This document shows, piece after piece, positions 3,611 to 41,980 of a stretch of DNA of 64,000 nucleotides (positions within the stretch are counted from its first letter, which is position 1; every line of letters starts with the position of its first letter). Origin of the DNA: Candidatus Uhrbacteria bacterium (GTDB taxonomy: Bacteria; Patescibacteriota; Patescibacteriia; UBA9934); NCBI GenBank assembly GCA_943359525.1, contig CALRHV010000003.1, forward strand, positions 521-64,520, read 5' to 3'. Both the position numbers and the translations under genes were made by a program. The notes beneath the pieces are model-generated. The model did no database searches. It was not told the origin of the DNA and worked only from the letters and a program-made list of their open reading frames with translations.

Positions 3611-3630
3611 TTTCTCTAAAAACGAGAACG

Positions 3631-3655
3631 CCCCGGCTTTCGTGGCCGGGGGTTC
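3631..3655. terminator. GC hairpin CCCCGGC-TTTCGTG-GCCGGGG between convergent genes, with a U-tract on the tdk side
   Basis: Inverted repeat read directly; on the minus strand it is followed by GUUCUCGUUUUUAGAG. Confidence 0.4.
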
Positions 3656-3671
3656 GTGGGGTGCGTGTTGT

Positions 3672-4241
3672 TCACGGCTTCGGTGTGAAGTGCGCGAAGC
3701 AGCGAGCCTCGTATTCGTCGTCTCCGATGACGATGTTGCCGCCGTCGGTGGGGAGTTGTGCGAGGAGCTGCGACCAATGGGCGCGATCTCCGCACTGTGT
3801 GCACCAGGCGTGGCGTCGATGAACGTCCTGCGTAGTGTTCGCGATCTCGGCGACGACGGGGAACGGCAGGCCGTAGAAGTCGTAGTCGAGTCCAGCGACG
3901 ATGACGTCCTGACCCCGATCGCGCAGAGCGACGATGAGCCGAACGATCTCTCGGGGCGCGAACTGCACCTCATCGAAGGCGATGACGTTCGCTTCGGGAT
4001 CGATGAGATCGTGAAGCTCCGCGATGGTCTCGAAGCTAACGGAGGGCTCCTCGAGACCTTTGCGGCTCTGACAGACGCCCCGATCCCGAGTGTTCGTTCG
4101 GGGGTTGAAGAGTTGGAACCGCTGACGGCCATGGTCGCGGCGGAGCCTGAGATCGCTCAGGAGCGCCTCGGACTTTCCGCTGAACATCGGTCCACAATAC
4201 ACCGTGATGACGCCAACCTTCGGAAGCGCGCGCAATGTCAT
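3672..4241 (-). CDS. tdk: thymidine kinase
   Basis: P-loop 'GPMFSGKSE', 'VIAFDEVQF', C-terminal zinc ribbon 'CTQCGDRA...ARC'; start chosen at internal M (MTLRALPKVGVITVY...) giving about 190 aa; locally GC-rich. Confidence 0.85.
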   Translation of the reverse strand: MTLRALPKVGVITVYCGPMFSGKSEALLSDLRLRRDHGRQRFQLFNPRTNTRDRGVCQSRKGLEEPSVSFETIAELHDLIDPEANVIAFDEVQFAPREIVRLIVALRDRGQDVIVAGLDYDFYGLPFPVVAEIANTTQDVHRRHAWCTQCGDRAHWSQLLAQLPTDGGNIVIGDDEYEARCFAHFTPKP

Positions 4242-4382
4242 GAACTGTCTCCTGGGTGAACGGATACATTCTAAGCGATCGGAGAGATTCGAAAACTTTG
4301 TCCCGTGGATAAGTATGTGTTGTGCACAGCTTGTCCTTTGAGTTGAACACATTTTGTCCACACGGCGTGATAAAATGGGGAT

Positions 4383-5519
4383 ATGAGAATCGGAATTGAC
4401 GCAAGATTCTACGGTCCACGCGTTGGAGGCGGCGGTCTCGGCCGTTACACCGCAGAATTAGTGACGGCATTGCAGGCGGTAGACAAGGAAAATGAGTACG
4501 TGCTTTTTTTGCGCAAGGAAAACTTTCACGAGTGTGCCATTACCAACGGAAACTTTACCAAACGCATGGTGGATGTTCCGTGGTATTCGTTTGCAGAACA
4601 ACGAGAAATGCCCCGCGAAATTGCGTTGGCCAAAGTGAACCTCATGCACTATCCGCATTGGAATGTGCCGATTTTCTCCCGTGTGCCGTTTGTGGTGACG
4701 ATTCACGATCTGATCCTCCTCGAGGACCCTGCGTCGTCGCGCGCCACAACACGGAATGCGTTTCTGTACGGCATCAAGAGCATCGGTTACCGCATTACGC
4801 TCGAAGTTGCGATTCATCGCAGTAAGCATATCGTGGCCATTTCGCAATACACCAAGCGATCAATCCTTGAGCACTTCCGAGTGCCCGGCGGAAAAATTTC
4901 CGTGGTGTACAACGGCGTTCGTCCGCCAGTGGGTGCTGAAAAAGTATCGCTTGCAGAGCTTGGTGTGCAGCAGCCGTACATCCTGTCCGTCGGCAACGCG
5001 TATCCGCATAAAAATCTTGAGACGACACTTCTCAGCTTCCGCAAACTCTGTTCTTCCGACGAGCGAACCATGCTTGTGCTCGCCGGAAAGCGCGATATGT
5101 TTGTGGAAAAACTTGAGGCATTCGCGCTCGAGATTGGCATTCCGTCATCACGAATCCGTTTCGTGAATACCCCAACAGATGCGGTGCTCGCGCGGCTCTA
5201 TCACGACGCAGCGCTCCTGGTCATCGCTTCTCGCATTGAAGGCTTCGGCATTCCGCCGTTGGAGGCGTTGGCACTCGGTATTCCTGTGGCAGCGAGCCAT
5301 GCATCGTCATTACCAGAGGTGCTTGGTGACGCGGTTCGGTACTTTACTCCCGATGATGAAGACACGCTCGCCCGACTTATGCTCAACGCCGTGTATCAGC
5401 CCAGTGCGTGGCATAGCCTTCAGGCGTCAGGCATTTGCCAGGCCGAGAAGTTTTCTTGGAAGAAAACAGCGCTTGCGATGCGCGACATTTACCGAAATTT
5501 TGCAGACCGACGATTGTGA
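4383..5519 (+). CDS. glycosyltransferase family 4 (GT-B, group 1)
   Basis: MRIGIDAR N-terminus and E-x7-E motif 'EGFGIPPLEALALGIPV'. Confidence 0.8.
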   Translation: MRIGIDARFYGPRVGGGGLGRYTAELVTALQAVDKENEYVLFLRKENFHECAITNGNFTKRMVDVPWYSFAEQREMPREIALAKVNLMHYPHWNVPIFSRVPFVVTIHDLILLEDPASSRATTRNAFLYGIKSIGYRITLEVAIHRSKHIVAISQYTKRSILEHFRVPGGKISVVYNGVRPPVGAEKVSLAELGVQQPYILSVGNAYPHKNLETTLLSFRKLCSSDERTMLVLAGKRDMFVEKLEAFALEIGIPSSRIRFVNTPTDAVLARLYHDAALLVIASRIEGFGIPPLEALALGIPVAASHASSLPEVLGDAVRYFTPDDEDTLARLMLNAVYQPSAWHSLQASGICQAEKFSWKKTALAMRDIYRNFADRRL

Positions 5520-25184: not shown

Positions 25185-25261
25185 GGGCCTGTAGCTCAGT
25201 TGGTTAGAGCGCCGAGCTTATACCTCGGTGGTCCCTGGTTCAAGTCCAGGCAGGCCTACCA
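25185..25261 (+). tRNA. tRNA-Ile with anticodon UAU (reads AUA)
   Basis: Hand-folded cloverleaf: acceptor GGGCCTG/CAGGCCT (G1-U72), D-arm GCTC-AGTTGGTTA-GAGC, anticodon stem CCGAG/CTCGG with loop CTTATAC, T-arm CCTGG-TTCAAGT-CCAGG, encoded CCA; body is Ile-like. Confidence 0.65.
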
Positions 25262-28324: not shown

Positions 28325-29461
28325 TTATTTCTTTACGGAGCTTTGAATATGTTCCACTACTGCGCGTTCTGCGGAAACGATATCGGTTTGAGTAAGTGAA
28401 AGATGTGCGGCTTCGCGAGTACCGGTGGCGCGGAATGGGGCGCCAAGGAGAAGGGCGTCAAATGGGCGTTGGGCAAAGAGTTGGCCGGCGATGCCGTCGG
28501 CATGGGTTTCAAAAAGGATGAGGGCGATTTTTGCGGAAGGAGACGTCATCAAGAGTTCATCGGCGATGTCGCGAAGGGCCTCCGCGTTGGCACCAGCGGT
28601 GACGAAGTCTTGTTTGGTGATGAGTGTCCACACAAGCCCAATTGCTTCGTCGGCCTTGAGTCGGGCAAGCGCACGGCCCCACAATCGGAGAGTTTCAACG
28701 GAGCGTGTGCGGTAAAGATGCTCGACGATCTTCTCGCGATCCGCTTTCTTCTCCATCAGTTTCTGCGCAATCTCGAGCGTTTTCGGTGAAACGTTCGGCG
28801 CGCGGAAGCTCTTCGTCTTGCTCATCATGCCAGTAAGAAGTGCAGTAGCGATGTCGGCGGTAACGATCGTGTTGTCGAGATGCATGAAGAGGTTGAAGCA
28901 GACCTCGGAGACGCTCGTCGCCGTAAGATCAACGATGTTGATAGTGCCGAAATGTTCGTTCTCCGGGCCGTGGTCAATAACGACGGTTGGGGTTTTCAAA
29001 AAGAAATCCGCGTAGGTTGAAAACAGCGCACCAAGGCTTGCACGATCTGGGGCGCCAAGAACGATAATGAGGTCGTGGCGATAATCGTTCGCAGTGATCT
29101 TCACGTCACTTGGCTGCCACGTGCCAGTCTTTGGCGTGATGGTGACGACGAGATCGTTGCCATCTACCGCGTACGTCAGTCCATCAACTTTCGCACGATT
29201 GAGATCGACACGAAGCGTGAGGGCGTTGATGTTGCCAAGGTCTCCGGCAACGTCTTGAAACACGGAAAGGAATTTGAGTGCGTCTGGCGCCCGTCCACCG
29301 CTTGTGACGATAGGGCACGGAATGCCGAGGGCTTTGCACAGCGCAACAATGCTGAACGCGGCCGAAAAATCATCGACAGTTGGAGAAGCCTGAAGCACAA
29401 CCACTGGCCGCTTTGCTCGTTTGAGCGCCTCATGAAATTGTTGAAATAGCGCCAACGACAT
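28325..29461 (-). CDS. nrnA: DHH/DHHA1 phosphoesterase (NrnA-like nanoRNase/pAp phosphatase)
   Basis: Start at internal 'MSLALFQQFHEALKRAKRPVVVLQ'; 'VVIDHGPENEHFG' (DHH motif region) and C-terminal DHHA1-like block; the upstream 160 codons of the track ORF are GC-rich read-through. Confidence 0.6.
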   Translation of the reverse strand: MSLALFQQFHEALKRAKRPVVVLQASPTVDDFSAAFSIVALCKALGIPCPIVTSGGRAPDALKFLSVFQDVAGDLGNINALTLRVDLNRAKVDGLTYAVDGNDLVVTITPKTGTWQPSDVKITANDYRHDLIIVLGAPDRASLGALFSTYADFFLKTPTVVIDHGPENEHFGTINIVDLTATSVSEVCFNLFMHLDNTIVTADIATALLTGMMSKTKSFRAPNVSPKTLEIAQKLMEKKADREKIVEHLYRTRSVETLRLWGRALARLKADEAIGLVWTLITKQDFVTAGANAEALRDIADELLMTSPSAKIALILFETHADGIAGQLFAQRPFDALLLGAPFRATGTREAAHLSLTQTDIVSAERAVVEHIQSSVKK

Positions 29462-29559
29462 GCAAGAGATGAAGGAAGTGTGAGGAACTAGCCTATCGGC
29501 TGTGGAGGTTATGGTCAAGGATTTTTGTGCATGACGTATGGGTATTCGCCCAACGTTGG

Positions 29560-29631
29560 CCAAAAACGATTCACGGCCCAGCTCCGAAGAGCCGAGCCGT
29601 GAGCGTGTAGCGCGTAGTGCGTGATGCCGAG
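29560..29631 (-). terminator. conserved 3' module 1 of 3: a 13-bp GC stem with UUCG tetraloop plus U-tract (CACGGCUCGGCUC-UUCG-GAGCUGGGCCGUG AAUCGUUUUU)
   Basis: Directly follows the paralog stop codon; about 85-90% identical to the modules at 30253-30321 and 30964-31032. Confidence 0.55.
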
Positions 29632-30192
29632 CTAGTCGCGAACGACGGTCCAGATGTTCGAGTTCGGATTGAGCGTGACGGTCATCGGCCTGTCGAGGAC
29701 GAAGGATTCGCCGTGGCCTTCCACGAGAATGTCGCCTTTTCGAACGAAGACCTTCCAGGCGCACCTGGCGTTGTTCAGTCGGTCGTCCGACAGGAGGATC
29801 TCTCGTCGCGCCGCCGGCGACACGTTGCCAGCGGGGAAGATGGTTCCGTTCCACGCAAGAGACGACGCGCGGTCGAACGCCTCGTGGATTTCCCTGATCC
29901 CATCGCTTCGATCGGGGTTGCCGAGCCGCCACTCCGCGAGCCACTGTAGCGCCTCGAACAGCGCGATGATCCCGTGGTCCGTGACGGTGTTCAGCTGAGC
30001 GAACGGGATGGTGTGGTAGGGAACAGCTTCGATGGTGCCGATACCGATGCTTCGGCGCAGAGCCTCGAGCTGTCCGAACGCGGCGACACGAAGTTCATGA
30101 TTCGGCCGATGGCTGTGTTCTCGGACGAACCGGCGCGTACGGTGGAAAGCCTCGTCGATGGATGTGAGAAGCGGGTCTCGCAAGCGGTTCAT
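29632..30192 (-). CDS. paralog 1 of a tandem 3-gene family of unknown function (about 187 aa, conserved 'GNVSPAA(R/Q)REI' and C-terminal 'NIW(T/D)VVRD')
   Basis: ORF track; aligns along its whole length with 30322-30885 and 31033-31596 at roughly 30% identity; GC-rich. Confidence 0.55.
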   Translation of the reverse strand: MNRLRDPLLTSIDEAFHRTRRFVREHSHRPNHELRVAAFGQLEALRRSIGIGTIEAVPYHTIPFAQLNTVTDHGIIALFEALQWLAEWRLGNPDRSDGIREIHEAFDRASSLAWNGTIFPAGNVSPAARREILLSDDRLNNARCAWKVFVRKGDILVEGHGESFVLDRPMTVTLNPNSNIWTVVRD

Positions 30193-30252
30193 GAGTGCCT
30201 CGGGGGAGTGTGTAGCGAAGAGATGATAGAAATTCCTTAATCAACCGTCAAT

Positions 30253-30321
30253 AAACGAATCACGGCCCAGCCCCAGAGGAGCCGAGCCGTGCGCGTGTGG
30301 CACGTAATGTGTAGTGCCGGG
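30253..30321 (-). terminator. conserved 3' module 2 of 3 (same stem-loop plus U-tract)
   Basis: See 29560-29631. Confidence 0.55.
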
Positions 30322-30885
30322 CTAGTCGCGAACGACGTCCCAGATCTGGTTCTCCTCATCGAACTGGACGTTCGGCGGGATGGGTGTGACTGCGACGTTG
30401 CCGTAGCCAGTCACCATGAATGTGGGGCTAATCGGGTCGTTGTCGAATCCTTCCGCGATCCACTTACCGCGACCTTCCGGGTTCCGGAAGATCGGCAACT
30501 TGTGAATCTCCCGTTGTGCAGCAGGAGAGGCGGTCCCGTCCGGGAAGATCAGGCTGTCGCCAAAGCCTTCGTCGCCGATCTCATTGAATGCGATCACCAC
30601 GCTGCGGTGTGTCACGAGGGTATTCTCCGCAAACCGCCACTCGGCGAGGAGCTGCGCGGCGTGGAAAAGCCGGTGTACTTCACGACCTGCCTCGAAGGCG
30701 TACATCCGCGATTTCACGACACGGTACGGAATCTCCGCCATGCCGTCCCATGTCATGTTGATGTTGAACAGGGCCTGAACCCAGTCGTCGATGTGATCGC
30801 CGGGGCCTGAACGATCGATCATCCGATGGATACGTTGGACGGCGTCGAGGTATGCCTTGCACATCGCGCGCGTTGGTAGTTTCAC
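30322..30885 (-). CDS. paralog 2 of the tandem family
   Basis: See 29632-30192. Confidence 0.55.
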   Translation of the reverse strand: MKLPTRAMCKAYLDAVQRIHRMIDRSGPGDHIDDWVQALFNINMTWDGMAEIPYRVVKSRMYAFEAGREVHRLFHAAQLLAEWRFAENTLVTHRSVVIAFNEIGDEGFGDSLIFPDGTASPAAQREIHKLPIFRNPEGRGKWIAEGFDNDPISPTFMVTGYGNVAVTPIPPNVQFDEENQIWDVVRD

Positions 30886-30963
30886 GATGGAAATCTCCGG
30901 GTTGAATGAGTGGATCCCGCAAAATACTAGCAGAATTCGCTATTTCTTTCAATACTTTTCCAA

Positions 30964-31032
30964 AAACGAATCACGGCCCAGCCCCAGAGGAGCCGAGCCG
31001 TGAGCGTACTGCACGTGGTGTGTGACACCGAA
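30964..31032 (-). terminator. conserved 3' module 3 of 3
   Basis: See 29560-29631. Confidence 0.55.
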
Positions 31033-31596
31033 CTAGTCGCGAACGATGTCCCAGACGTTCGTCTTCCGGTCGCAGCGGAAGACCGCCGGATCCAGTTCGA
31101 TGATTGCCGAGTTGCCTTCTCCGGTCACGTGGGCGGTGTAGCTCGTCGGATCCATGCCCTCCACGATCCAGTGCGCCGGGCTCCGAACACTGCCGAAGAT
31201 CGGCATCTTGCGGATTTCCCGCTGTGCCGCCGGGGAGACGTTGCCGTCCAGGAAGACCACGCTGTCCGCTGGGTCTTCATCGCCGACGTCATTGTATGCT
31301 GCGATCACATCGTGTTCCGTCACATCGGTTCCGGGCTGGCGCATGTACTCCGCCTGGAGTTGTGTTGCTTGGAAGAGACGCCAGATTTCGCGGCCAATGC
31401 CGAAGGGGAGCACTCGAGAATCCACGAGTCGGTATGGTATGACTGCCGGATTCTCGTACGCGAGGACAATCGTGCTCATCGCCGCGAGCGAGAACGAGGC
31501 ATTCTCGCTGCGATCTCCGTCGGGGAACTTCCGCTGAAGGCGTTCTACGGCATTCAAGAAGGAGAGGAGGATCGTGGGTGTCAGCATGCGTGCCAT
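31033..31596 (-). CDS. paralog 3 of the tandem family
   Basis: See 29632-30192. Confidence 0.55.
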   Translation of the reverse strand: MARMLTPTILLSFLNAVERLQRKFPDGDRSENASFSLAAMSTIVLAYENPAVIPYRLVDSRVLPFGIGREIWRLFQATQLQAEYMRQPGTDVTEHDVIAAYNDVGDEDPADSVVFLDGNVSPAAQREIRKMPIFGSVRSPAHWIVEGMDPTSYTAHVTGEGNSAIIELDPAVFRCDRKTNVWDIVRD

Positions 31597-31711
31597 TGAA
31601 AGGTTCTGGAGAACGACGACTGTCCGGCCGTCTGCGGTGCGTTGGGGAAGATCCCCGCGGACGGAGCAATCTACCCCAAAACCTGCTTTTCGTCTACACT
31701 TCGTCCTATCT

Positions 31712-34333
31712 ATGGCGAACGAAATGGCAAAAGCGTATGAGGCGAGGCTCGTGGAGGACGGAATTTACAATTCTTGGCTAACATCAGGTTATTTCACGCC
31801 GGAGAATCTGCCGAATGTTACGGATTCTACCGAGGCTTTTACCGTCGTCATGCCACCGCCAAACGTGACGGGGGTGTTGCACCTTGGCCATGCGCTCGAG
31901 AATTCCCTCATGGATGCGATGGCCCGGTATCAGCGTTTGCTGGGAAAGAAGGTGTTGCTGATTCCGGGAACTGATCATGCGGCGATCGCCACGCAAGCAA
32001 AAGTGGAGAAGAAGTTGATGAGCGAAGGCGTGAAAAATCCTCGTCAGGAACTTGGGCGCGATGCACTCGTGGAAAAGATTCGTGAATTTGCTGAAGGTTC
32101 AAAGGCGACGATTTTGAAGCAGGTGAAAAAATTAGGAACCAGCGCCGACTGGAGTCGTTTGGCATACACGTTCGATGACAAACGCAACGTAGCGGTGAAT
32201 GAGCTCTTTACTCGCATGTACAGCGACGGCCTTATTTACCGTGGTTATCGCGTGGTGAACTGGTCGGTGAAGGGTCAGTCTACGTGTTCCGACGACGAGA
32301 TCGAAACGATCGAGCGCGAATCCGTGCTCTACACATTCAAATACGGAAAAGATTTTCCGATTGCCATCTCAACAACACGTCCAGAAACGAAAGTCGGCGA
32401 TACGGCTGTTGCAGTGCATCCAACAGATGATCGATACAAGGCGTTTATCGGAAAAACCTTTGATGTTGAATTTGCGGGAGCGAAGCTTTCGATCAAGATC
32501 ATCGCGAGCGAAGACGTTGATCCATCATTCGGAACCGGAGCACTCGGCGTTACTCCAGCACATAGCGCGATCGACTTTGGCATGTACGAAGTGCAGAAGG
32601 CAAAGCAGGATCCTATTGAAATTACGCAAGTCATCGGTGCGGACGGAAAGATGACCGCAGATGCAGGGTCGGTTGCGGGAATCGGTTTCGAAGCTGCACG
32701 AGAATCGATCGTTGCGTGGTTGAAGGAACAGAGCCTTCTCGAAAAAGAGGAAAAGGTTGTGCAGAACGTCGGCACGTCTGATCGGTACGGCGACGTCATT
32801 GAGGCAATTCCAATGACGCAGTGGTGGTTGAACGTGAATAAGATGATTCCGAATCGCGGCAAGACGCTGCGCGATTTGATGCGTGAAGCGGTAACGACCG
32901 GACTCGATGGCAAATCGGATCAGAAAGTGTCGATTACGCCAGATCGGTTTACAAAACTCTACCTGGATCGTGTTGAGAATCTCCGCGATTGGTGTCTTTC
33001 TCGTCAGCTGTGGTGGGGCCACAGAATTCCTGCGTGGTATCGCGGAGAAGAGATTGTTGTTGGGCCAAAACCAGAAGGCGATGGTTGGATTCAAGACGAG
33101 GACACGCTCGACACTTGGTTCAGTTCCGGCTCGTGGACGTTCTCGACGCTCGGTTGGCCTGAACAAACAACCGATCTCAAAAACTATCATCCAACACACT
33201 GGATTCAGATGGGATATGAAATTTTGTATCTCTGGTTGATGCGCATGATTTTGATGAGCACATACGCGTTGAATCAGATTCCGTTCAAGGACGCCTATAT
33301 TCACGGCATCTTACGAGATAAGGACGGAAAGAAGTTTTCGAAATCATCGGGAAACGGAATCGATCCGATTGAGGTGATCGAGGAGTACGGTTGCGATGCG
33401 CTTCGCATCTCGGTGCTTTCCGGCAACACGCCGGGAAATGATTCGCGGTATTACACAGAAAAAGTGGAAGCTGCGCGCAACCTTGTGAACAAGCTGTGGA
33501 ACATTTCGCGATTCATCTTTACGAATGCTGACGGTGCGCGTCACATCGAATCCGTAACTCCAAAAACGCTTGCCGACAAATGGATTCTTGCGCGCTTCAG
33601 CGAGACGACGAAGAAGGTAAGTTCACTCATCGATCGTTACGATTTCTCCCTTGCGATCGAAGTATTGCGCGACTTTACATGGAATGATTTTGCTGACTGG
33701 TACCTCGAGATTGCGAAGATTGAAAAAGAAAAAGACGACGTTCTTCTCTACATTCTCGAGCGTTTGCTCATCCTTTGGCATCCATTCGCGCCATTCGTTA
33801 CGGAGGAAATCTACAAGAATTTCGACTCTGGAATGATCATCGTCGCCAAGTGGCCAGCCGTCGAGTATGAATTGTCGTCAGAGGATCAATCGGCCTTTGA
33901 GCAGGTGTGTTCGACGGTGATCGCCGTTCGAAACTATCTGTCCGAGCACAAAACATTACCGAAGGACGTTGAATCGATTACGATGGTGAATGCTGGTGCT
34001 TTGGCTGAAATGGAATCGATTATTGGTGGATTGACTAAGGTGAGGTCGATCCGTTCGAGTAACGAGCGCCCAGAATCGATCACGCCGATCGTGGTCGGTG
34101 CCGCGCAAATCTTTGTGCAATTGCCGTCTGTTGATGCTGCATCGGAAAAAGTGCGCATTGAATCGGGAATCGCCGAAGCAACGAAGTTCATCGCAGCCCA
34201 AGAATCAAAGCTCGCGAATGCGGATTTTGTGGCTCGTGCGCCAGAAAAGGTGATTGCGGGGGAGCGGCAGAAGTTAGCAGATTTGCAAGAGAAACTTGCT
34301 GCGTTGCAAAAGGAGCACGCAGCGCTTCTGTAA
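31712..34333 (+). CDS. valS: valine--tRNA ligase
   Basis: 'PPPNVTGVLHLGHA' (HIGH), 'KMSKS'-region 'KFSKSSGNGIDP', anticodon-binding and C-terminal coiled-coil; start at MANEMAKAYEARL (track ORF starts further 5' in GC-rich sequence). Confidence 0.9.
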   Translation: MANEMAKAYEARLVEDGIYNSWLTSGYFTPENLPNVTDSTEAFTVVMPPPNVTGVLHLGHALENSLMDAMARYQRLLGKKVLLIPGTDHAAIATQAKVEKKLMSEGVKNPRQELGRDALVEKIREFAEGSKATILKQVKKLGTSADWSRLAYTFDDKRNVAVNELFTRMYSDGLIYRGYRVVNWSVKGQSTCSDDEIETIERESVLYTFKYGKDFPIAISTTRPETKVGDTAVAVHPTDDRYKAFIGKTFDVEFAGAKLSIKIIASEDVDPSFGTGALGVTPAHSAIDFGMYEVQKAKQDPIEITQVIGADGKMTADAGSVAGIGFEAARESIVAWLKEQSLLEKEEKVVQNVGTSDRYGDVIEAIPMTQWWLNVNKMIPNRGKTLRDLMREAVTTGLDGKSDQKVSITPDRFTKLYLDRVENLRDWCLSRQLWWGHRIPAWYRGEEIVVGPKPEGDGWIQDEDTLDTWFSSGSWTFSTLGWPEQTTDLKNYHPTHWIQMGYEILYLWLMRMILMSTYALNQIPFKDAYIHGILRDKDGKKFSKSSGNGIDPIEVIEEYGCDALRISVLSGNTPGNDSRYYTEKVEAARNLVNKLWNISRFIFTNADGARHIESVTPKTLADKWILARFSETTKKVSSLIDRYDFSLAIEVLRDFTWNDFADWYLEIAKIEKEKDDVLLYILERLLILWHPFAPFVTEEIYKNFDSGMIIVAKWPAVEYELSSEDQSAFEQVCSTVIAVRNYLSEHKTLPKDVESITMVNAGALAEMESIIGGLTKVRSIRSSNERPESITPIVVGAAQIFVQLPSVDAASEKVRIESGIAEATKFIAAQESKLANADFVARAPEKVIAGERQKLADLQEKLAALQKEHAALL

Positions 34334-34380: not shown

Positions 34381-34584
34381 ATGGCTTCTCTCTTGGCAAA
34401 GGTTCGAAAAGGGTCAGCAGCGTCGCAAACAATCTCGCTTGAGATGAATGCTCGATCGTTCGAGCGTCTTGCGGCGAGCTTTGGTTTTTTTAGTGATTCG
34501 TTTTTAAAAAGCATTCAACGGGCAGAGCGCGATATCAAGGCCGGACGAGTCCGTACGATTACTTCGCTTGCCGACCTAGAATAG
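34381..34584 (+). CDS. type II antitoxin (ParD/addiction-module-antidote-like)
   Basis: 67 aa, 4-nt gap to the toxin; C-terminal 'AERDIKAGRVRTITSLADL' typical of this antitoxin class. Confidence 0.5.
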   Translation: MASLLAKVRKGSAASQTISLEMNARSFERLAASFGFFSDSFLKSIQRAERDIKAGRVRTITSLADLE

Positions 34585-34587
34585 CGT

Positions 34588-34860
34588 ATGCTGACCGTCC
34601 AAGTTGCGGACGAATTTACTGAGCGTTACCTTGCCCTTCCTCTATCTCTTCGAAAGAAAGTGCGGAAGCAAGAAATTCTCTTCCGAGAAAATCCATTTCA
34701 TCCTTCATTGAATACTGAAAAGCTTGAACCGAAAGGAAAACAGATGTGGAGTTTTCGGGTGGACCATCGGTATCGTGTCTTGTTCCGCTTTGAAGATCGA
34801 AATCTTGTTACGCTACTAACGGTCGGACCACATGATTGGATCTATAAGATTGCACTGTAG
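34588..34860 (+). CDS. type II toxin, RelE/ParE family
   Basis: 90 aa; 'FRVDHRYRVLFRFEDRNLVTLLTVGPHD' matches the RelE/ParE core. Confidence 0.7.
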   Translation: MLTVQVADEFTERYLALPLSLRKKVRKQEILFRENPFHPSLNTEKLEPKGKQMWSFRVDHRYRVLFRFEDRNLVTLLTVGPHDWIYKIAL

Positions 34861-40469: not shown

Positions 40470-40545
40470 TGGTGGACCGTATCGGGATCGAACCGATGAC
40501 CTTCTGACTGCCAGCCAGACGCTCTACCAGCTGAGCTAACGGCCC
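40470..40545 (-). tRNA. tRNA-Ala (anticodon GGC)
   Basis: Reverse complement folds with G3-U70 acceptor pair (Ala identity), anticodon loop CTGGCAG, T-arm ATCGG-TTCGATC-CCGAT. Confidence 0.85.
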
Positions 40546-40556
40546 TAAGGATGTCC

Positions 40557-40633
40557 TGGTGGACGCCGGGGGATTCGAACCCTCGACCCTCTCGGTGTAA
40601 ACGAGATGCTCTAACCAGCTGAGCTAGGCGTCC
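40557..40633 (-). tRNA. tRNA-Val (anticodon UAC)
   Basis: Reverse complement: acceptor GGACGCC/GGCGTCC, anticodon stem TCTCG/CGAGA with loop TTTACAC, T-arm GAGGG-TTCGAAT-CCCCC. Confidence 0.85.
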
Positions 40634-40727: not shown

Positions 40728-41420
40728 ATGGCAAAATCCACAATCTCTACACGATGGTCAAAAAAACTTGCATACGCAATTGGTCTTATTGTATCGGACG
40801 GAAATATGTCACCGGACGGCCGTCATGTGACTTTCACATCAAAAGATCTTGATCTTATTGAACAATTCCTTCGTGCGTTGAATATCGAAGGCTATCATGT
40901 CGGAAGAAAATCTCGCGGCCATGAACTCGAAAAGAAGTATTTTGTCGTACAGATTGGAGACGTTCGATTTTATCGTTTTTTATTGGGGATCGGCATCATG
41001 CAAAGAAAATCAAAAATCCTTCAAGAAATACAGATGCCAAAAAATCTTCTTCCCCATTTTGTTCGAGGCGTGTTTGATGGGGATGGAACATGCTACTCGT
41101 ATTATGATCCACGCTGGAAATCCAGCTTCATGGTATACACCGCTTTTGTATCTGCGAGTCCAATATTTCTTACGTGGCTACAAAAATACCTTGATGCTAC
41201 TTATGGTATTCAGGGCACAATCAGTGCCATGGTCAAACACGTCCAACAGCTCCGGTATGCGAAAAAGGCTTCGCGGAAACTTTTTTCTATAATGTATCGA
41301 AATGCCGATAATTTGTACCTTAAAAGAAAATACTTGAAATTATCAGAGGCGTTGGCTATACTCCCCTCGGTTCAAGAAAAGAATGCGCGAGTGGAGAAAT
41401 TGGTAAACTCGCCAGCTTGA
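40728..41420 (+). mobile_element. free-standing LAGLIDADG homing endonuclease gene (two LAGLIDADG motifs), AT-rich; last 12 codons run into tRNA-Leu
   Basis: 'LAYAIGLIVSDGNMS' and 'LLPHFVRGVFDGDGTC' double motifs; markedly lower GC than flanks; the reading frame continues 36 nt into the downstream tRNA before the stop. Confidence 0.65.
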
Positions 41421-41471
41421 GGGGCTGGTGCTAGCAATAGCTTGGAGGTTCGAGTCCTCTCTCGCGCACCA
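41385..41471 (+). tRNA. tRNA-Leu (anticodon GAG), type II
   Basis: Acceptor GCGCGAG/CTCGCGC, 3-bp D-stem GAG/CTC, anticodon stem CCAGC/GCTGG with loop TTGAGGG, 15-nt variable arm, T-arm GGAGG-TTCGAGT-CCTCT, CCA. Confidence 0.85.
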
Positions 41472-41505: not shown

Positions 41506-41569
41506 TTGTGGACGAGAAAGGCCGCTGTCCTGGGTGGGACGGCGGCCTTGAGGCGATGTTGCGATGCAC

Positions 41570-41980
41570 TTAGTGCCACCGTCCGTTGTGACGGAAACAC
41601 AGCGCCATGCGAATATTCGCGTGGAGGACCCACAGAATGCTCGCGATGAAAACGAAGCGTCCGATGGTTGGCGGAATCGGGACTGCACAACAGGTGAGCG
41701 CAACGAAGAGAATCCATGAGATCGCGGCCCATTTCATGAGTCGGATCGCCTCTTTCTGGTTAGCCTCCGTTTGCAGGAATGCCTCCTTACGCTCTTTGCT
41801 GAGCACCTTGAGCCTCACGCCGTTTTTTTCACCAATTTGCCAGCCCCTGGCGACTTCTTGCGGCGTAAGAAAATCACCATCTTCCGATGTCTGGTCGCGA
41901 AGAGCGAGTCCGCTGTTGTTCGATGCTTCGGTTTCGTGGGTCGTCATGGTGTATTCTCCGTGTGTAAGGGTACAGGACAA
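41570..41980 (-). CDS. hypothetical membrane protein
   Basis: ORF track; C-terminal pair of hydrophobic helices. Confidence 0.35.
   Translation of the reverse strand: MSCTLTHGEYTMTTHETEASNNSGLALRDQTSEDGDFLTPQEVARGWQIGEKNGVRLKVLSKERKEAFLQTEANQKEAIRLMKWAAISWILFVALTCCAVPIPPTIGRFVFIASILWVLHANIRMALCFRHNGRWH

Follow-up and report, generated by a model that had tools for sequence, protein, structure and literature searches.

A tandem gene family with closely similar terminator modules between valS and a DHH-family gene in Candidatus Uhrbacteria

We analysed a stretch of 64,000 nucleotides (nt) from a Candidatus Uhrbacteria bacterium (contig CALRHV010000003.1 of assembly GCA_943359525.1), hereafter called the window, in which a tandem array of three paralogous genes, p1, p2, and p3, lies between valS and a gene for a DHH-family phosphoesterase. 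An earlier note, made from the sequence alone, had described three homologous genes on one strand, and this is what we found: all three are on the minus strand, encode 186-187 amino acids (aa), and align end to end as proteins. The first open reading frame (ORF) of the array, p3 (31033-31596, 187 aa), adjoins valS. It is followed by p2 (30322-30885, 187 aa), which has a GTG start preceded by GGAG, and by p1 (29632-30192, 186 aa), the last gene, which adjoins the DHH gene. In the phylogeny described below, p1, p2, and p3 fall into paralogue groups C, A, and B, respectively. The upstream flank, valS (31712-34333, plus strand), is divergent from the array and was recognized by its Pfam domains tRNA-synt_1, Anticodon_1, and Val_tRNA-synt_C. 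The downstream flank (28325-29461, minus strand, 378 aa) was assigned to NrnA-like DHH-family phosphoesterases from the Pfam DHH profile, with a score of 23.9 bits that lies under the 28.1 cut-off, and from the names of its Candidatus Uhrbacteria homologues, nanoRNase/pAp phosphatase or RecJ-like.

The 3' untranslated region of each gene consists of a module that is also encoded on the minus strand: module 1 behind p1 (29558-29631), module 2 behind p2 (30247-30321), and module 3 behind p3 (30958-31032). Module 3 comprises a C/A-rich spacer, a hairpin (30971-31003), and a T-tract; the hairpins of modules 1 and 2 lie at 29571-29602 and 30261-30291, that of module 1 likewise being followed by a T-tract. 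These hairpins lie 30-40 nt past the stop codon and have 13-15 pairs, a loop of 3-4 nt, and a T-tract immediately after. The terminator scan gave stems of 14-15 pairs, 9-10 of them G-C; module 3 has 15 pairs, 10 of them G-C. The earlier note had described a stem of 13 bp with a UUCG tetraloop. UUCG occurs in many copies of the module across genomes, but of the three units of the window only unit 1 has it, units 2 and 3 having a 3-nt UCU loop. In the same scan, the T-rich tails read TTCGTTTTTG, ATTCGTTTAT, and ATCGTTTTTG, and the three modules make up half of the six terminator-like sites in 5 kb. Two of the three promoter-like sites in 5 kb begin at or shortly after a module tail. The predicted sigma-70-like promoter of p2 (30924-30952, minus strand; TTGAAA, 17-nt spacer, TAGTAT, with an upstream TG; 9/12 in the promoter scan) starts about 10 nt past the T-tract of module 3, and the -35 box of the predicted sigma-70-like p1 promoter (30223-30251, minus strand; TTGACG, 17-nt spacer, TATCAT; 10/12) directly abuts the T-tract of module 2. 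A putative first-position promoter (31668-31696, minus strand; TAGACG, 17-nt spacer, TAGATT), read from the sequence with 8/12 consensus positions and below the threshold of the promoter scan, lies in the spacer shared with the divergent valS. In what follows, L-numbers designate related loci that we recovered and P-numbers family proteins obtained by the searches. The stretch with the putative first-position promoter is conserved in L005 and in the more distant L052.

A unit opens with a sigma-70-like promoter and a short leader that carries a GGAG ribosome-binding site; the ORF of about 185 aa comes next, and some 30 nt of C/A-rich spacer then lead to a strong Rho-independent terminator. As each gene is framed by a promoter and a terminator of its own, each is predicted to form an autonomous transcription unit. 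The three upstream regions are mutually unlike in the window, as previously stated, but each type is conserved in other genomes: the intergenic region of the p2-promoter type in L005, L007, and L008, and the p1 promoter ahead of the p1 orthologue in L005.

Protein identity is 40-41% between p2 and p3, 30-31% between p1 and p2, and 25-27% between p1 and p3. Codon alignments gave coding DNA identities of 45-57% among the three genes, with third-position identities of 0.37-0.46 and saturated synonymous divergence (dS of 1.1-1.3). The paralogues of the array are old duplicates. Over the 76 nt from the stop codon to the T-tract, units are 82-83% identical, slightly below the 85-90% of the earlier note but far above the coding regions. 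Identity reaches 84-93% in the hairpin and tail and amounts to 62-76% in the 29-nt C/A-rich spacer between stop and stem. The similarity extends into the last 30 coding nt (70-80% identical between units), where the units also agree at synonymous positions in their final four to five codons. The 60 nt beyond the module tail are 48-52% identical, about the level of the coding DNA, which indicates no conservation there. The note had named modules no more similar than the coding regions as an outcome that would speak against it. Careful alignment gave the opposite, and simple duplication and drift are insufficient to account for modules so much better conserved than the genes. The protein blocks that it quoted, GNVSPAA(R/Q)REI and N(I/V)W(T/D)(V/I)VRD, do exist, but p2 departs from them with GTASPAAQREI and QIWDVVRD. 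Its observation that the block is GC-richer than its surroundings applies to both G+C content (0.59-0.62 vs 0.50-0.56 for the neighbours) and G+C at third codon positions (GC3; 0.75-0.78 vs 0.52-0.59). High GC3 is found in every family member, single-copy genomes included.

The hairpin is conserved as an RNA structure. The 90-nt hairpin segments fold to -37 to -41 kcal/mol, with the hairpin in the minimum free energy structure of every instance. From an alignment of 13 instances from eight genomes, which also served to build a covariance model, RNAalifold predicted the same hairpin in 13/13 instances, with 18 pairs, four of which show double compensatory changes (for example A-U to G-C at pair 2). 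Many pairs are U-G or G-U, several of which are mismatches on the opposite strand. The covariance model accordingly gives 30-70 bits to the sense strand vs at most 27 bits to the antisense strand; modules 1 and 2 of the window score 63.8 and 66.2 bits, and module 3 scores 69.3 bits sense vs 16 antisense. All genomes, including single-copy ones and the distant one, retain the base of the hairpin (CACGGC...GCCGTG) and its flanks (ACGC before, TTCGTTT after). The compensatory changes, the G-U pairs on the sense strand, and the U-tract indicate that the hairpin acts as RNA in the mRNA and not as a DNA recombination site. By its sequence, the module corresponds to the definition of a Rho-independent terminator, and transcripts would terminate there.

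This structure is associated only with the family. Throughout 170 kb of Uhrbacteria sequence, the covariance model matched only behind family genes and nothing else exceeded 15 bits. Neither a pattern search, for which 100 shuffles gave an expectation of 0 matches, nor blastn nor the covariance model detected further copies in the 64-kb window, where Rfam identified only tRNAs. The pattern matched 34 times in the metagenomes of the Joint Genome Institute, in all cases in unrelated hairpins with no family gene near. The only other match of the covariance model in the window, a very weak one at 3614-3659 (minus strand, 14.9 bits, E = 0.3), lies just downstream of a thymidine kinase gene (3672-4361) that likewise has a high GC3 (0.71) and is probably another terminator. 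Separately, several genomes carry a second conserved hairpin (GAAACGAGCGRCCCG...GGCCGCYCGTCGT) past the last array module, at 12555-12600 in L007, 11295-11345 in L008, about 2850-2890 in L004, and 5045-5085 in the distant L052. This hairpin was not seen in the window and may be an array-terminal or bidirectional terminator.

Among 5.8 billion proteins, a word-indexed search identified nine clusters of homologues, and a HMMER search of 1.84 billion representatives gave 26 matches, two of which are eukaryotic repeat artefacts, leaving about 24 family members. All are limited to a subclade of Candidatus Uhrbacteria. The family lies between valS and a DHH/NrnA-like gene, where flanks are visible, in 14 of the 16 recovered family-bearing loci, and the synteny valS, family, DHH, PolyA_pol holds across copy numbers. 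There is one copy in L002/L003 and L045-L047, two in L008 (plus a solo module), in L004 (only the valS side being visible), and in L048/L049 (no flank identifiable), three in the window, and four in L007, with two additional genes ahead of the DHH gene. L050/L051 have one full-length copy behind an unrelated ORF of 68 aa. L005 combines a 109-aa short form with at least two copies, and the more distant L052/L053 have only the short form. In a still more distant Uhrbacteria genome (L054/L055), the spacer contains other ORFs and no family member. The distant members P0025 and P0028 are encoded at a second locus, near nusB. Homologous arrays elsewhere thus vary in copy number and carry the module behind their family genes, two points on which the earlier note had asked for a check. 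As the family occupies the same spacer in related genomes, in single copy in some of them, it is ancestral to the subclade and not a recent insertion. At the level of the class, the valS/DHH spacer is a variable spot.

The short form (L005 936-1265, L052 4606-4935) directly adjoins valS in both loci and is absent from the window. It consists only of the N-terminal helical part of the protein and stops just ahead of the IFPxGNxSPAA block. The short forms of L052/L053 and L005 are of equal length and share 32% identity end to end; the short form looks like a genuine short paralogue and not a pseudogene. As a point of annotation, the record of L007 (CAYROW010000001.1) bears the title 'uncultured Gammaproteobacteria bacterium'. 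The genes of L007 and their order match those of the Candidatus Uhrbacteria loci, and over the N-terminus of valS it shares 99% protein identity with the Uhrbacteria bin L008; the label is probably wrong.

According to a neighbour-joining tree, five groups of full-length paralogues are distinguishable. Group A contains p2 of the window, P0005/P0006, and copy 1 of L004, L007, and L008; group B, p3, copy 2 of L005, and P0010; group C, p1, copy 3 of L005, and copy 3 of L007; group D, copy 2 of L004 and copy 4 of L007; and group E, copy 2 of L007 and of L008. The L005 orthologues are 82% identical to p3 and 87-88% identical to p1; copy 3 of L007 is 43-45% identical to p1. For p2, identities are 62-63% with P0005/P0006 and 47-50% with copy 1 of L004, L007, and L008. 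The orders of the arrays, B-A-C in the window, short-B-C in L005, A-E-C-D in L007, A-E in L008, and A-D in L004, do not conflict with one another and could all derive by differential loss from a single ancestral order, (short)-B-A-E-C-D. There are at least five to six paralogue lineages plus the short form, of which each genome keeps a different subset.

The modules follow a different pattern: they cluster by genome, which the coding regions do not. The group-A module of the window shares 86-90% identity with the B and C modules of the window but only 70-72% with those of group A in L004, L007, and L008. Similarly, the two modules of L048 are 90% alike, and their proteins belong to different groups. 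Two insertions or deletions of units between genomes have their junctions at the module. At the L005 junction between the orthologues of p3 and p1, the left flank is that of window module 3 (CAGTACGCT) and the right flank that of window module 2 (GTTTATTGACG), and a p1-type leader comes after GTTTATTGACG. As read from the sequences, such a junction would be the product expected if exchange inside the hairpin had removed or inserted the p2 unit. Behind the group-E gene of L008 stands a terminal module that is 94% identical to the one behind group D in L007, which indicates that copies C and D were lost or gained at the edge of the module. A solo module precedes copy 1 in L008, and a decayed one was found in L006 and L007. 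Exchange has also affected a coding region: P0011 (L050 2731-3324) is a mosaic, its N-terminal two thirds being 50-70% identical to P0014 and its C-terminal third 58-74% identical to group A, with the switch point at the conserved SPAAxR block. In the module downstream of the P0011 gene, the top of the hairpin contains an insertion.

The proteins evolve fast. The ratio of non-synonymous to synonymous divergence (dN/dS) is 0.26-0.43 between family orthologues vs 0.05-0.09 for valS and the DHH gene in the same genomes, which places the family locus among the fastest-evolving in an otherwise conserved housekeeping neighbourhood. With dN/dS below 1, the proteins would be weakly constrained or partly under positive selection. 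Between paralogues the ratio is 0.5-0.76, a value that is uninformative because dS is saturated. The diversifying selection that had been proposed does not follow from these ratios, although fast protein evolution is itself observed. Synonymous divergence is low in the family relative to the flanks. Between the window and L005 (1420-2621), dS of the family is 0.23-0.59 vs 1.2-1.75 for the adjacent valS, that is, 2.5-7 times lower, and for valS the window is as divergent from L005 as from any other genome. Between L007 and L008, dS is 0.25-0.78 in the family vs 0.5-0.9 in the flanks. The low values hold over three estimators and at four-fold sites. Possible explanations are recurrent exchange of arrays between lineages, or family-wide synonymous constraint or GC-biased conversion in a region where recombination is active.

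Long antisense ORFs of 199, 173, and 110 aa lie opposite the paralogues in the same-triplet frame (31000-31599, 30289-30810, and 29617-29949, all plus strand), and similar ones lie opposite family genes of L007 and L008. We rejected them as genes: some orthologues have stops there and others do not, and avoidance of CTA is not stronger than that of GTA. High GC3 and the rarity of A-ending codons (TTA, CTA, TCA) keep the same-triplet antisense frame open. Annotators should be warned that high GC3 and long antisense ORFs at this locus are by-products, not genes.

The family has no counterpart in current collections. We obtained no match in Pfam, NCBIfam, or PADLOC, nor when the 26 aligned members were scanned singly against Pfam, and the two PHROGs matches are both insignificant (E = 0.13). 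No homologue was found among viral contigs, phage records, or plasmid records. An AlphaFold2 model of p2 based on nine sequences was obtained with high confidence (predicted local distance difference test score of 88.4, predicted template modelling score of 0.87) and shows five helices followed by a five-stranded sheet. Foldseek retrieved no meaningful match in PDB (best E = 0.54) or BFVD (best E = 0.4), and a sequence-profile search of PDB gave no significant one (best E = 0.03). The family is therefore a previously unnamed one, with a confident predicted structure that lacks a detectable relative in PDB or BFVD. Invariant or near-invariant positions are Ala15, Pro53-Tyr54, Leu73, Gln78, Phe114, Pro121, Ala123, Arg125, Pro170, and Trp182; none of the near-invariant residues across the 26 members is an Asp, Glu, His, Cys, or Ser. 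The isoelectric point of the members varies from 4.8 to 10, and they have no hydrophobic segment. The lack of conserved catalytic-type residues, the varying charge, and the absence of a hydrophobic segment suggest soluble, cytoplasmic, non-enzymatic binding proteins. That they bind a partner as inhibitor- or immunity-like proteins, or act as regulators, is a tentative guess to which we give low confidence; the immunity, defence, or antigen-like role proposed earlier received no support from the databases. A functional partnership with the DHH gene is also unsupported, P0025 and P0028 being encoded at a locus without a DHH gene. A weak tblastn match of p1 at 41517-41693 of the window (E = 0.002) was dismissed as a chance match, no other member matching there.

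We consider it likely that these genes form a tandem birth-and-death family in which structural selection, together with intra-array recombination, keeps the terminators alike. According to this explanation, a lineage-restricted multigene family would evolve by birth and death at the fixed valS/DHH spacer in a subclade of Candidatus Uhrbacteria. The hairpin would be selected as RNA, insulating the back-to-back units and the downstream DHH gene. At the same time, the modules would act as direct repeats of about 45-75 nt that recombine by gene conversion and unequal crossing-over. Recombination between them would both homogenize the modules and delete or duplicate whole units; we infer that the mechanism is homologous recombination of the RecA type. 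The earlier note had also placed recombination at the module, to which the chimeric junctions, the solo module, and the clustering by genome and not by gene lineage all point. Concerted evolution is recognized when paralogues within one genome are more alike than orthologues between genomes. As in tandem families under concerted or birth-and-death evolution, the modules cluster by genome, units are gained and lost, and a chimeric gene (P0011) is found. Unlike in these families, the homogenized tract is a non-coding terminator with the last codons, and the coding bodies of the array keep their ancient divergence. The locus would then offer a clean example of non-coding concerted evolution, in which the terminators of ancient paralogues are homogenized and the genes are not, and in which the repeats mark the breakpoints of copy-number change.

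Several observations weigh against this explanation. The top of the hairpin at the L005 junction matches the variant of window module 1, not that of module 2 or 3, so that its history needs more than one event. The junction of the short-form unit, by comparison with the window that is without it, lies in the 5' leader and not in the module. Homogenization is incomplete: in L007 and L008, the group-E module and the terminal one share only 60-70% identity with the other modules, and the third copy of L007, which overlaps the fourth, lacks a module altogether. The clustering by genome rests mainly on group A and L048, from few genomes that are mostly represented by short contigs. Promoter use and termination are predictions from sequence motifs.

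Purifying selection for an efficient terminator, acting strongly and without gene conversion or recombination between modules, could by itself produce such a conserved element, and the conservation of the hairpin base and flanks in all genomes, single-copy and distant ones included, is in its favour. The modules resemble Rho-independent terminators in their G+C-rich stem, short loop, immediate U-tract, fixed orientation, and position behind the stop codon. Terminators of diverged paralogues are normally not near-identical in sequence. Those of the array differ in being 84-93% alike behind genes that are 45-57% alike, and in serving also as recombination joints. We regard selection alone as very unlikely. 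Between genomes, the stem changes freely by compensatory substitutions, which means that the exact sequence of the module is not required, yet within a genome near-identical modules stand behind different paralogue groups. Furthermore, the chimeric junctions and the solo module show physical exchange at the module, and the units share even synonymous positions in their last four to five codons. A second alternative, quite unlikely in our view, is that the array is an island recently acquired or exchanged by horizontal transfer between Uhrbacteria lineages, its modules reflecting a recent common origin. The GC3 excess over the neighbours, the low family dS between the window and L005 compared with valS, and the other genes occupying the spacer of the distant Uhrbacteria genome are what such an island would show, and the earlier note had concluded that the block looks acquired. 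On a recent time scale this is contradicted by the presence of the family at the site in every related family-bearing genome recovered, in single copy in several of them, with high GC3 there too: the GC excess is family-wide. On a deep time scale the spacer is variable, the distant Uhrbacteria genome lacking the family there. Because family dS is also one to three times below the flanks in L007/L008, part of the effect reflects family-wide synonymous constraint or GC-biased conversion. The paralogues within one array are ancient, no homologue occurs in phage, plasmid, or viral collections, and transfer leaves unexplained why the non-coding modules exceed the genes in likeness.

An imperfect palindrome repeated at the 3' ends of ORFs, gene content that varies between genomes, and skewed G+C also recall site-specific cassette systems, integron- or rAID-like, in which the hairpin would be an attC-like recombination site; the earlier note had likewise spoken of recombination-site-bearing cassettes. 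Pfam scans detected no recombinase within about 10 kb of the array, and none of 24 ORFs scanned (19 in the window between about 3.7 and 44 kb, five in related loci) has a recombinase or integrase domain. Bulged bases are absent from the stem, a U-tract comes directly after it, and its G-U pairs designate a sense-strand RNA; unlike attC, it is not accompanied by GTTRRRY/RYYYAAC core sites. Integron arrays consist of promoterless cassettes of unrelated genes; here, promoters precede p1 and p2, each unit having its own, all 'cassettes' are colinear paralogues of one family, and the site is fixed between housekeeping genes. In Bacteroidales, the rAID-1 (recombinase-associated acquired interbacterial defence) clusters consist of small genes in arrays, with repeats between the genes, skewed G+C, and strain-variable content (bioRxiv 10.1101/471110). 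The present array shares the repetitive intergenic sequence, the skewed G+C, and the variable content. It differs in that no XerD-family recombinase was found, that its genes form one family instead of being unrelated immunity genes, that its units have their own promoters and a plain terminator repeat in a fixed housekeeping spacer, and that its genes show no homology to known immunity genes in the database searches above. Homologous recombination between repeats that are ordinary terminators would take the place of a site-specific cassette system, which we consider highly improbable. Hardly credible at all is a mobile or dispersed repeat, of the repetitive extragenic palindrome (REP), bacterial interspersed mosaic element (BIME), or miniature inverted-repeat transposable element type, that landed behind each gene. 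The module is, like REP elements and BIMEs, a short G+C-rich palindrome downstream of genes that can stabilize or terminate transcripts. Unlike these, it is not dispersed: the window has three copies in 64 kb, in one orientation and all behind family genes, the 170 kb of Uhrbacteria sequence contain it only behind family genes and always in the same orientation relative to them, single-copy genomes carry it at the orthologous position, and the scan of public metagenomes retrieved only the 34 unrelated hairpins. Finally, as a more speculative extension that we think unlikely, the array might be a 'cassette exchanger' that needs no recombinase, for a fast-evolving family of binding- or immunity-like proteins in the candidate phyla radiation (CPR). 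The homogenized terminator-promoter joints would be maintained because, through ordinary homologous recombination at them, complete expression units could be shuffled, deleted, restored, and traded among lineages, which would explain the low dS, the high GC3 (by GC-biased conversion), and the mosaic proteins. The fold of the proteins would be one not yet among solved structures. For the biology of the CPR, the array is a candidate locus for variation between strains and perhaps also for contacts with hosts, phages, or competitors.

Three further features of the window lie outside the array. Between valS and a glyoxalase gene, a pair of ORFs of low G+C (34381-34860, 0.44) includes a second ORF of 90 aa that matches HigB/RelE/ParE-type toxins. 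In the syntenic regions of L002 and L045, valS is directly followed by the glyoxalase or a tyrosyl-tRNA synthetase gene, and the pair looks like a type II toxin-antitoxin insertion, judging from its sequence. ARAGORN identified a tRNA-Ile with anticodon UAU (tat) at 25185-25261. In most bacteria the reader of AUA is a CAU tRNA modified with lysidine, and a genomic UAU tRNA-Ile is uncommon. An ORF of 230 aa resembling LAGLIDADG-type homing endonucleases (40728-41420, G+C 0.41) is free-standing between tRNA genes, with tRNA-Val/Ala at 40470-40633 on one side and, on the other, tRNA-Leu (41385-41471), which its 3' end overlaps.

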